A program made the position numbers and the translations under genes. Positions 55,671 through 57,029 of a DNA stretch of 64,000 nucleotides are shown here, piece after piece. Numbering within the stretch: the stretch's first letter is position 1; each line of letters opens with the position of its first letter. Below the pieces are notes generated by a model. The model was given only the letters and a program-made list of their open reading frames with translations, was not told the DNA's origin and did not search any database. The DNA comes from a virus, in UHGV virus genome UHGV-0351052. One strand, given 5' to 3'.

Positions 55671-55747
55671 TGGTCGAGACAGAAGGATTCTAACCTTCAA
55701 CCTACGGATTAGAAGTCCGTTGCTCTATACAATTGAGCTATGCCCCG
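55671..55747 (-). tRNA. tRNA-Arg (anticodon UCU), CCA encoded
   Basis: Hand-folded cloverleaf: acceptor CGGGGCA/TGTCTCG with two G-U pairs, anticodon loop CUUCUAA, T-arm GAAGG-UUAGAAU-CCUUC. Confidence 0.75.
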
Positions 55748-55750
55748 TAA

Positions 55751-56416
55751 TTAAAATTTCATTTTTCGACCTTTAAACCATCCTTCTGGAATTGGGTCAG
55801 TTTTCTTAATACGTTTAGAAACTTTTTCATCTAATGAATGAATCCACATCATACCAAATTGGGAATTCTTTTCGCCCTGTTGATGTTTATTTCTGGCGTG
55901 AGATTCTTTCATTTTATTAATAGTTTCAGGAGTATGGGTCTTACCCAAGAAAGATTTAGTATTTAAAAATTTCTCTCTATACTTAGGATTATCCCAAAGC
56001 TGTTTAAACCTTTCTGAACCCATTTTACGATATTTTTCTTTAAGGTCTGGGTCGTTCTCAAATCTGGTTTTAAAAGCGGCAGCTCCTTTTAAAGAAGCTT
56101 CTTTCTTTTTATCCAAATATTCTTTAGTGTTTAAATGGTCCCAACCACCTTCACCACCTAATTTCAAATTATAAACATCAGAGCGCTTTAAAAACTCTTC
56201 AGTCACAATATTCTTTTCTGACTCAAACATAGAGGTTTTATCGTCAAAGAACTCTAATATTTCTTTAGAAAAATTTTCTATACCATACTTATCTTGGGCT
56301 CTTTTTAATAATTTACCAGAACCCATATATCCATCATCTAAATTTTCGGTAGAATGAGCGCCTATATAGATTTTATTATTAATTTTATTTGTTATTTTAT
56401 AAATGTAATGGAACAT
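55751..56416 (-). CDS. segB: GIY-YIG homing endonuclease SegB
   Basis: 221 aa; N-terminal YIYKITNKINNKIYIGAH GIY-YIG motif; located between tRNA subclusters as in T4. Confidence 0.8.
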   Translation of the reverse strand: MFHYIYKITNKINNKIYIGAHSTENLDDGYMGSGKLLKRAQDKYGIENFSKEILEFFDDKTSMFESEKNIVTEEFLKRSDVYNLKLGGEGGWDHLNTKEYLDKKKEASLKGAAAFKTRFENDPDLKEKYRKMGSERFKQLWDNPKYREKFLNTKSFLGKTHTPETINKMKESHARNKHQQGEKNSQFGMMWIHSLDEKVSKRIKKTDPIPEGWFKGRKMKF

Positions 56417-56457
56417 AAATATCTCCTATTTCTAAGAGTATTTATGTTCTCAAAATA

Positions 56458-56529
56458 TGGCCCTGGGTGGAATTGAACCACCATCTGGCGATTATGAGTC
56501 GCTTGCTTGAACCTTCCAGCTACAGGGCC
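56458..56529 (-). tRNA. tRNA-Ile (anticodon CAU, Ile2-type)
   Basis: Hand-folded; anticodon loop CUCAUAA; last tRNA of the T4 order Gln-Leu-Gly-Pro-Ser-Thr-Ile. Confidence 0.7.
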
Positions 56530-56535
56530 TTGATA

Positions 56536-56608
56536 TGCTGATTGACGGAATCGAACCGCCGACGTCCTCATTACAAGTGAGGTGCTCTACCTACTGAGCT
56601 AAATCAGC
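56536..56608 (-). tRNA. tRNA-Thr (anticodon UGU)
   Basis: Hand-folded: acceptor GCUGAUU, anticodon loop CUUGUAA, T-arm GGCGG-UUCGAUU-CCGUC. Confidence 0.8.
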
Positions 56609-56615
56609 GAAATTA

Positions 56616-56702
56616 CGGAGGCGATAGGATTTGAACCTATGAGTCGCCGGAGCGACTGCCGGTTTTCAAGACCGGTGCATTAAACCACTCTGCCACGCCT
56701 CC
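56616..56702 (-). tRNA. tRNA-Ser (anticodon UGA), long variable arm
   Basis: Hand-folded: acceptor GGAGGCG, anticodon loop CUUGAAA, long extra arm. Confidence 0.8.
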
Positions 56703-56704
56703 AG

Positions 56705-56778
56705 TCTCCGTGGCAGGATTTGAACCTACGACATTCTGCTCCCAAAGCAGACGCTCTACCAAACTGAGCTACACGGAG
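56705..56778 (-). tRNA. tRNA-Pro (anticodon UGG)
   Basis: Hand-folded: acceptor CUCCGUG, anticodon loop UUUGGGA. Confidence 0.8.
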
Positions 56779-56791
56779 TAAATTAAATTTG

Positions 56792-56863
56792 AGCGGATAA
56801 TGAGAATCGAACTCACATCATCAGATTGGAAGTCTGAGGTAATTACCATTATACGATATCCGC
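56792..56863 (-). tRNA. tRNA-Gly (anticodon UCC)
   Basis: Hand-folded: acceptor GCGGAUA, anticodon loop CUUCCAA. Confidence 0.8.
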
Positions 56864-56868
56864 AAATT

Positions 56869-56955
56869 TGGTACGAGAAGTGGGACTCGAACCCACAAGG
56901 AAATCATTCCGCAGCATTTTAAGTGCTGTGCCTTTACCAATTTGACCATTCTCGC
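56869..56955 (-). tRNA. tRNA-Leu (anticodon UAA), long variable arm, CCA encoded
   Basis: Hand-folded: acceptor GCGAGAA, anticodon loop CUUAAAA. Confidence 0.8.
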
Positions 56956-56956
56956 G

Positions 56957-57029
56957 CTGGGAATAAAGGACTCGAACCTTTGCATCTAGCAGTCAAAGTG
57001 CTATGCCTTACCAACTTGGCTAATTCCCA
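56957..57029 (-). tRNA. tRNA-Gln (anticodon UUG)
   Basis: Hand-folded: acceptor UGGGAAU, anticodon loop CUUUGAC; separated by 1 nt from tRNA-Leu. Confidence 0.8.

Follow-up and report, generated by a model that had tools for sequence, protein, structure and literature searches.

The transfer RNA (tRNA) gene cluster of bacteriophage T4 and its resident endonuclease gene segB have been studied since the 1970s; homing by SegB was demonstrated in 2008, and a role in the amplification of anti-defence genes was published in 2026. T4 SegB cuts the 3′ part of tRNA genes at a 27-bp site, the core of which (GGTTCRANTCC) corresponds to the T-arm, with a preference for the tRNA-Asn gene of T2L, RB1 and RB3 (PMC2330249). 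In crosses between T4 and T2L, segB was recovered in 99.6% of the progeny while T2L tRNA markers were excluded, an outcome that required intact segB (PMC2330249). T6 SegB is needed for recombination-dependent tandem amplification: the amplified segment is tRNA-Tyr plus segB when the host carries Septu, and other anti-defence genes are amplified in the case of OLD and ToxIN (PMC13096335). Here, we analysed a 64-kb (64,000-nucleotide) stretch of the virus genome UHGV-0351052 (the whole stretch is referred to below as the window), in which positions 55671–57029 had been predicted, from the sequence alone, to hold eight tRNA genes split by a GIY-YIG homing endonuclease gene. The region fell within Tequatrovirus by megablast, with Salmonella phage SG1 and Escherichia phage G8 as best matches (98%) and 832 phage records matching at least part of it; the window belongs to Tequatrovirus and is not T4 itself. 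As set out below, the locus is very probably the T-even phage tRNA transcription unit with segB, encoding a homing enzyme of the kind found in T4 and T6.

ARAGORN, run over the whole window, found exactly eight tRNA genes, all on the minus strand and with outer bounds at 55671 and 57029, and the Rfam tRNA model (gathering score 29) placed 8/8 of them at 57.0–73.5 bits (E-values 1e-10 to 3e-15). Read in the order of transcription, these are Gln(UUG), Leu(UAA), Gly(UCC), Pro(UGG), Ser(UGA), Thr(UGU), a tRNA with the anticodon CAU and, after a gap of ~700 bp, Arg(UCU), which are the anticodons of the T-even cluster in T-even order, with segB before Arg. The eight-tRNA cluster of the original prediction was thus borne out in its coordinates, isotypes and order, with ARAGORN labelling the CAU tRNA as Met; and since the covariance model supported every one of the genes, the outcome named beforehand as fatal to the prediction, rejection of one or more of the hand-folded tRNAs by such a model, did not materialise. 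No RNA family besides tRNA reached threshold in the Rfam scan of the whole window, and sub-threshold matches to Plastid-ycf2, sX4 and YrlA were dismissed as tRNA look-alikes lying at tRNA coordinates.

Five of the eight genes are essentially identical to their T4 counterparts: tRNA-Gln (56957–57029; 66.0 bits; 73/73 positions identical; no encoded CCA), tRNA-Leu (56869–56955; 57.0 bits; 86/87; CCA encoded), tRNA-Gly (56792–56863; 65.2 bits; 72/74; incomplete CCA, the 3′ end being U-C-A-A), tRNA-Ser (56616–56702; 62.6 bits; 87/87; a long variable arm and no CCA) and tRNA-Thr (56536–56608; 73.5 bits; 72/73; no CCA). The remaining three are other alleles. They comprise tRNA-Pro (56705–56778; 69.7 bits; 63/75 against T4; no CCA), which differs from both T4 and T2, is identical to that of G8 and fPS-2 and shows compensatory stem differences from T4; the CAU tRNA (56458–56529; 59.9 bits; no CCA), best read as tRNA-Ile2, a lysidine-dependent reader of AUA; and tRNA-Arg (55671–55747; 69.2 bits; CCA encoded), an RB68-type allele with a U19:A56 elbow pair. 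The resemblance to the T4 cluster extends to gene order and anticodons, and not to the Pro, CAU and Arg alleles. ARAGORN's limits coincide with those given for Leu, Thr, CAU and Arg, and read 56956–57029 for Gln, 56791–56863 for Gly, 56704–56778 for Pro and 56615–56703 for Ser.

Counted from the discriminator base or the encoded CCA, the spacers measure 1 nt (Gln–Leu, the tightest packing that had been predicted), 5 nt (Leu–Gly), 13 nt (Gly–Pro), 2 nt (Pro–Ser), 7 nt (Ser–Thr) and 6 nt (Thr–CAU), with 41 nt between the CAU tRNA and the segB ATG and 3 nt between the segB stop codon and tRNA-Arg. CCA is encoded in 2/8 tRNAs, compared with four in T4: Gly reads UCAA instead of UCCA, Thr lacks the CCA of its T4 counterpart, and the Thr–CAU spacer is 6 nt rather than 1 nt. 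Because only Leu and Arg encode CCA, maturation would have to depend on the host for 3′ trimming and for a CCA-adding enzyme, in keeping with the established biology of T4 tRNAs.

The gene separating the seven tRNAs from tRNA-Arg (55751–56416, minus strand) encodes a free-standing GIY-YIG homing endonuclease of 221 amino acids, so that the predicted placement of segB proved correct. Its product matched the Pfam GIY-YIG family PF01541 at 26.6 bits (cut-off 22.6), PHROG 314 'homing endonuclease' with an E-value of 1e-47 and a PADLOC homing-endonuclease family. It is identical to T4 SegB at 183/221 residues (~83%) and, in a gap-free alignment indicating full-length orthology, to T6 SegB at 177/221 residues (80%, E-value 2e-134). 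Y17 and G19, mutation of which abolishes T6 SegB activity (PMC13096335), are both conserved in its N-terminal GIY-YIG catalytic domain. The 41-nt leader of the gene is identical to that of T4, and a hairpin at 56409–56452 (minus strand; −18.6 kcal/mol, z −5.85, with 0/200 shuffles folding equally well) would sequester the Shine–Dalgarno sequence and start codon; in T4, a hairpin over the segB start has been proposed to restrain segB translation (PMC2330249). In T6 itself, segB (1915–2580 of the T6 stretch, between Tyr and Arg) is mis-annotated as a 'serine recombinase'.

Potential targets of the enzyme are concentrated in the cluster. The SegB core GGTTCRANTCC occurs exactly seven times in the window against 0.11 expected, always on the minus strand and always within the cluster, in the genes for tRNA-Gln, Leu, Pro, Ser and Thr, the CAU tRNA and rnaC. 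By analogy with the T4 and T6 enzymes, we infer that the SegB of this phage would likewise perform site-specific T-arm cleavage (GGTTCRANTCC ... CCAR) and homing. No tandem amplification of the segB/tRNA segment, of the kind seen in T6 escape mutants, was present in the window.

The identity of the CAU tRNA called for closer scrutiny, as ARAGORN's 'Met' call is based on the anticodon alone. The gene matches the 'tRNA-Met' of T2 and RB68 at 100% identity and shares 47/72 positions with T4 tRNA-Ile. In alignment it carries C4-G69 and C5-G68, the pairs required by E. coli TilS (PMC1635315), where the elongator tRNA-Met gene metT has U4-A69 and A5-U68 instead; the anticodon arm, GCGACUCAUAAUCGC, is shared without change with E. 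coli ileX. Position by position, the tRNA agrees with a prophage tRNA-Ile(CAU) at 59/72 and with ileX at 55/72, compared with 48/72 for metT and 46/72 for metY, and its best matches among 5,426 E. coli genomes, headed by a prophage tRNA-Ile, are all annotated as tRNA-Ile (80.8% identity over the full length). The prediction that this tRNA is of the Ile2 type is supported by the TilS pairs, the ileX-identical anticodon arm and the greater identity to Ile(CAU) than to Met genes, all of which point to a predicted lysidine-modified reader of AUA. An elongator tRNA-Met, which would leave the cluster without an AUA reader, is an improbable alternative. It would agree with ARAGORN and with the GenBank annotation of the identical gene as tRNA-Met in T2, RB68, G8 and fPS-2 (the gene is also labelled Met in the T2L map of PMC2330249), and with the finding that only 47/72 positions are held in common with the biochemically characterised T4 tRNA-Ile. 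However, these Met labels follow from the anticodon alone, the TilS-required pairs set the gene apart from metT, both its anticodon arm and its closest E. coli relatives are those of tRNA-Ile, with 55–59/72 positions shared with Ile(CAU) genes as opposed to 46–48/72 with Met genes, and AUA is the second most enriched codon of the phage. The 'tRNA-Met' of T2, RB68 and the window phage therefore looks like an AUA-reading tRNA-Ile2, which amounts to a correction of the existing annotation.

Phage codon usage, which the original prediction had suggested comparing with host tRNA supply, was compared with that of the host in 84 open reading frames (ORFs) of the window and 51 E. coli K-12 genes. All eight cognate codons, each ending in A, were 1.4–6.6 times more common in the phage, and AGA (6.6-fold) and then AUA (3.7-fold) were the two most enriched of the 61 codons. 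Every tRNA of the cluster thus serves an A-ending codon that the phage over-uses, and these counts fit the classical role of supplementing rare host tRNAs. In addition, the tRNAs may take the place of host tRNAs that defence nucleases have destroyed.

Taken further, the same idea would make nuclease-resistant replacement the chief reason for keeping the tRNAs and segB a domesticated anti-defence amplifier, with supplementation and selfish homing secondary. The rescue of infection from PARIS by T5 tRNAs (PMC12409363), the requirement for T6 SegB in tandem amplification under Septu, OLD and ToxIN (PMC13096335) and the unusual, phage-restricted elbow pair of the window Arg allele (see below) would all fit such an emphasis. 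On the other hand, 8/8 anticodons match codons over-used by the phage, as classical supplementation predicts; the window phage lacks tRNA-Tyr, the target of Septu; and tandem amplification is absent from the window. We consider this ordering of roles somewhat unlikely, and since defence and supplementation are not mutually exclusive, it differs from the main reading in emphasis and is no true alternative to it.

The tRNA genes and segB appear to belong to a longer transcription unit, all on the minus strand. Upstream, ~70 nt before tRNA-Gln, a site resembling a MotA-box middle promoter (TGCTTTA, 12 nt, TATTAT; 57099–57123) matches the consensus, and in T4 a middle promoter lies directly upstream of the tRNA cluster (PMC2330249). 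Over the whole window, the pattern TGCTTNA-N11-13-TANNNT occurred 20 times against 4.9 expected, with 14/20 occurrences on the minus strand, which also holds 83/84 called ORFs. Downstream of tRNA-Arg, as in T-even phages, follow homologues of rnaD (species 2 RNA; 55186–55305; alignment 87% identical to T4, and annotated at the same position in RB68) and rnaC (species 1 RNA; 55041–55179; 98.6% identical to T4, with a tRNA-like T-arm hairpin), and then a putative intrinsic terminator (54967–54990), a hairpin of 10 pairs, 7 of them G-C, followed by TTTTTGG, which would mark the end of the unit; in T4, transcription reportedly stops downstream of species I RNA (PMC2330249). The T-arm-like hairpin of rnaC (CCGGGUUCGAAUCCCGG) holds an exact SegB core at 55053–55063 (minus strand), which makes this stable RNA gene a potential SegB cleavage site. 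Rfam has no family for rnaC or rnaD.

Between tRNA-Arg and rnaD lies an ORF of 116 amino acids (55302–55652, minus strand) with a strong Shine–Dalgarno sequence; it fits precisely between the CCA of tRNA-Arg and the beginning of rnaD, and its stop codon overlaps the rnaD start. It matched PHROG 3355 'unknown function' (E-value 1e-53). T2, RB68 and 426 phage records contain it, and T4, T6 and fPS-2 do not; in total, 443 bp of the window take the place of 78 bp of T4. Searches of Pfam, PADLOC and PDB sequences gave no match and no assignable function, just seven close homologues were found among 5.8 billion proteins, and the weak AlphaFold model (predicted local distance difference test score of 66, residues 54–85 disordered) gave no match in a fold search. 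As a description of the unit, the original prediction was consequently right about the eight tRNAs and segB, and incomplete in omitting rnaD, rnaC and the 116-amino-acid ORF. Beyond the unit, 53890–54440 (the e.7 region) and 58086–58304 (the ipI region) could not be aligned with T4, so other cassettes differ from T4 on both sides.

How the locus would work follows from combining the genes, order, homology and motifs computed for the window with the cleavage, homing and amplification described for T4 and T6. A MotA-type middle promoter would drive a single precursor RNA holding seven tRNAs (Gln to Ile2-CAU), the segB message, tRNA-Arg(UCU), the 116-amino-acid ORF, rnaD and rnaC and ending at the intrinsic terminator, from which host RNase P, 3′ exonucleases and the CCA-adding enzyme would release tRNAs that supplement rare host tRNAs. 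SegB would recognise tRNA T-arm DNA and, in mixed infections, cut a segB-less relative, preferentially in tRNA-Asn, whereupon recombinational repair would copy segB and the adjacent tRNA genes into the cut genome; such breaks might also seed tandem amplification of anti-defence genes. The original interpretation, that the endonuclease gene is placed so as to favour inheritance of the tRNA region when phages co-infect, is supported.

The placement of segB is consistent with this proposal. The gene fills the exact slot held in RB68 by tRNA-Tyr and tRNA-Asn, between a T2/RB68-type CAU tRNA and an RB68-type tRNA-Arg. Its upstream junction falls directly after the discriminator base A73 of the CAU tRNA, with the CCA of T2/RB68 lost and the T4-type segB leader following, and its downstream junction is the first base of tRNA-Arg. 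As the displaced slot includes the preferred target, tRNA-Asn, this is the footprint expected from homing into an RB68-like backbone. A search for traces of tRNA-Asn or tRNA-Tyr next to the segB 3′ end or within it yielded only chance-level matches, the best local T2 Asn alignment being equalled by 54/1000 shuffles, and the idea of a remnant was discarded.

Certain points weigh against the proposal. Both the promoter and the terminator are identified by consensus alone; the sample of E. coli codons comprised only 50 kb; the window SegB differs from that of T4 at 38/221 residues, mostly in the central and DNA-binding part, and could therefore differ in site preference; and the allele mosaic could have come from ordinary recombination of co-infecting T-even phages without SegB. 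The last point can be extended to an explanation in which general homologous recombination among T-even phages shuffled the alleles and segB, no longer homing, is carried along passively or is decaying. T-even phages do recombine at high frequency, and the region also varies without segB, RB68 having an endonuclease gene at tRNA-Pro and the 116- and 153-amino-acid ORFs being independently present or absent. Yet segB is intact and full-length, with its catalytic residues and regulatory hairpin conserved; it sits precisely in the Tyr–Asn slot, the home of its own preferred target; and it is joined to its neighbours at the 3′ and 5′ ends of tRNAs, the places at which SegB cuts, with 90 phage records sharing the segB/Arg junction. 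We regard a passenger origin as improbable, and no evidence contradicts the proposed reading of the locus as a T-even unit with a probable homing enzyme.

One of the eight tRNAs departs from the canonical elongator fold (G19:C56 and a GUUC T-loop) to which the other seven conform. The tRNA-Arg(UCU) gene, GGTTAGAATCC, has the T-loop UUAGAAU, with A56, and the D-loop AAUUGUAUA, with U19, giving an isosteric U19:A56 pair in place of an elbow pair that is almost universal in tRNAs (PMC7912444); it nonetheless folds into a cloverleaf, and its score on the tRNA model is 69 bits. When IMG/VR was scanned by exact pattern for Arg(UCU) tRNAs bearing the variant T-loop, with the matching canonical pattern as a control, 21 contigs with very different stems came up. 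Among the distinct variant (A56) sequences, 16/18 had G18-U19, and the other tRNAs of those contigs were canonical; the control pattern was found in at least 120 contigs, and its 110 distinct sequences included 103 with GG and none with GU at positions 18–19. In a set of 185,579 bacterial and archaeal genomes, one per species, the variant pattern occurred in only 22 places, seven of them tRNA-Arg(UCU) genes, of which three had U19. One of these three sits in a 27-tRNA array (2377–5703) of a Solibacteraceae metagenome-assembled genome contig that is probably phage-derived. Separately, a tRNA-Arg(ACG) on a viral contig (4661–4736) carries the reciprocal non-canonical elbow pair, A19:U56.

The U19:A56 variant is thus recurrent and essentially phage-restricted. 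We found no account of such an elbow pair in the literature, including a paper on evasion by phage tRNAs (PMC10264068). Tentatively, and against the odds as we judge them, the tRNA-Arg(UCU) beside segB may represent a class of AGA-reading tRNAs, restricted to phages and not described before, in which G19:C56 is replaced by U19:A56. Recurrence in divergent phage tRNA-Arg(UCU) genes together with near-absence from cells makes adaptation possible rather than drift: the pair could, for example, serve to evade a host factor or nuclease that recognises the tRNA elbow or T-loop, or homing endonucleases directed at T-arms. With it the T-loop loses its GUUC consensus; A56 breaks, in the RNA, the consensus GUUCNANNC needed by TruB (PMC13492117) and, in the DNA, an invariant base of the SegB core. 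Immunity against the phage's own SegB was considered as the main cause and is not supported: phages such as RB68, JS09, HX01 and S16 carry this allele with no segB next to it, T4 and T6 keep a canonical Arg beside segB, and a SegB-like ORF lies within 2 kb in just 1/21 variant contigs, that one being the G8 genome itself. Should the change prove adaptive, the divergence of phage from host tRNAs would extend beyond the anticodon loop to the elbow. This tRNA-Arg class is the sole lead from the locus that we consider worth following.

The locus itself is already known as the T-even tRNA/segB region, and its allele combination is already present in public phage genomes; both SegB homing at T-arms and anti-defence amplification are published, and with the same segB/Arg junction in 90 phages the arrangement is not new. 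What the window offers is a clear-cut case from nature of segB inserted into a tRNA backbone like that of RB68, the junctions lying at the ends of tRNA genes. Compared with T4 (NC_000866, 70,908–72,530), it shares the strand, the gene order, the eight anticodons, segB between the CAU tRNA and tRNA-Arg with an identical leader hairpin, trna.4, trna.3 and trna.2 upstream and rnaD, rnaC and the terminator downstream, and its Gln, Leu, Gly, Ser and Thr genes differ at 0–2 positions. It differs from T4 in the alleles of Pro, CAU (of T2/RB68 type) and Arg, the last without meaningful alignment to T4 tRNA-Arg, in the ORF separating Arg from rnaD, in its fewer encoded CCA ends and in SegB.

RB68 shares the Arg allele and, after it, the 116-amino-acid ORF, rnaD and rnaC, and its CAU tRNA, like that of T2, is identical; however, both RB68 and T2 have tRNA-Tyr and tRNA-Asn at the position of segB, which is missing there. 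T2 further differs in a 133-amino-acid ORF in the place of tRNA-Thr, and RB68 in another endonuclease gene in the place of tRNA-Pro; the latter, a different homing endonuclease gene of 202 amino acids (1459–2067 of the RB68 stretch), marks the cluster as a hot spot for endonuclease genes. In T6 (AP018814; PMC13096335), segB likewise lies in the cluster directly upstream of tRNA-Arg and the last 41 SegB residues are identical, but tRNA-Tyr is kept upstream of segB, the segB leader and N-terminus are different and the Arg and Ile alleles are of T4 type; ARAGORN found no Pro or Ser gene at the T6 locus. Closest are SG1 and vB_EcoM_G8, with 98.1–98.4% DNA identity over 55300–57400, including the 116-amino-acid ORF, and the same annotated tRNA order, with point differences only, apart from an extra ORF of 153 amino acids downstream of rnaC in G8. 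Lined up, the gene orders form a series, from Thr-CAU-Tyr-Asn-Arg-ORF116-rnaD-rnaC in RB68 through CAU-Tyr-segB-Arg in T6 to Thr-CAU-segB-Arg-ORF116-rnaD-rnaC in the window.

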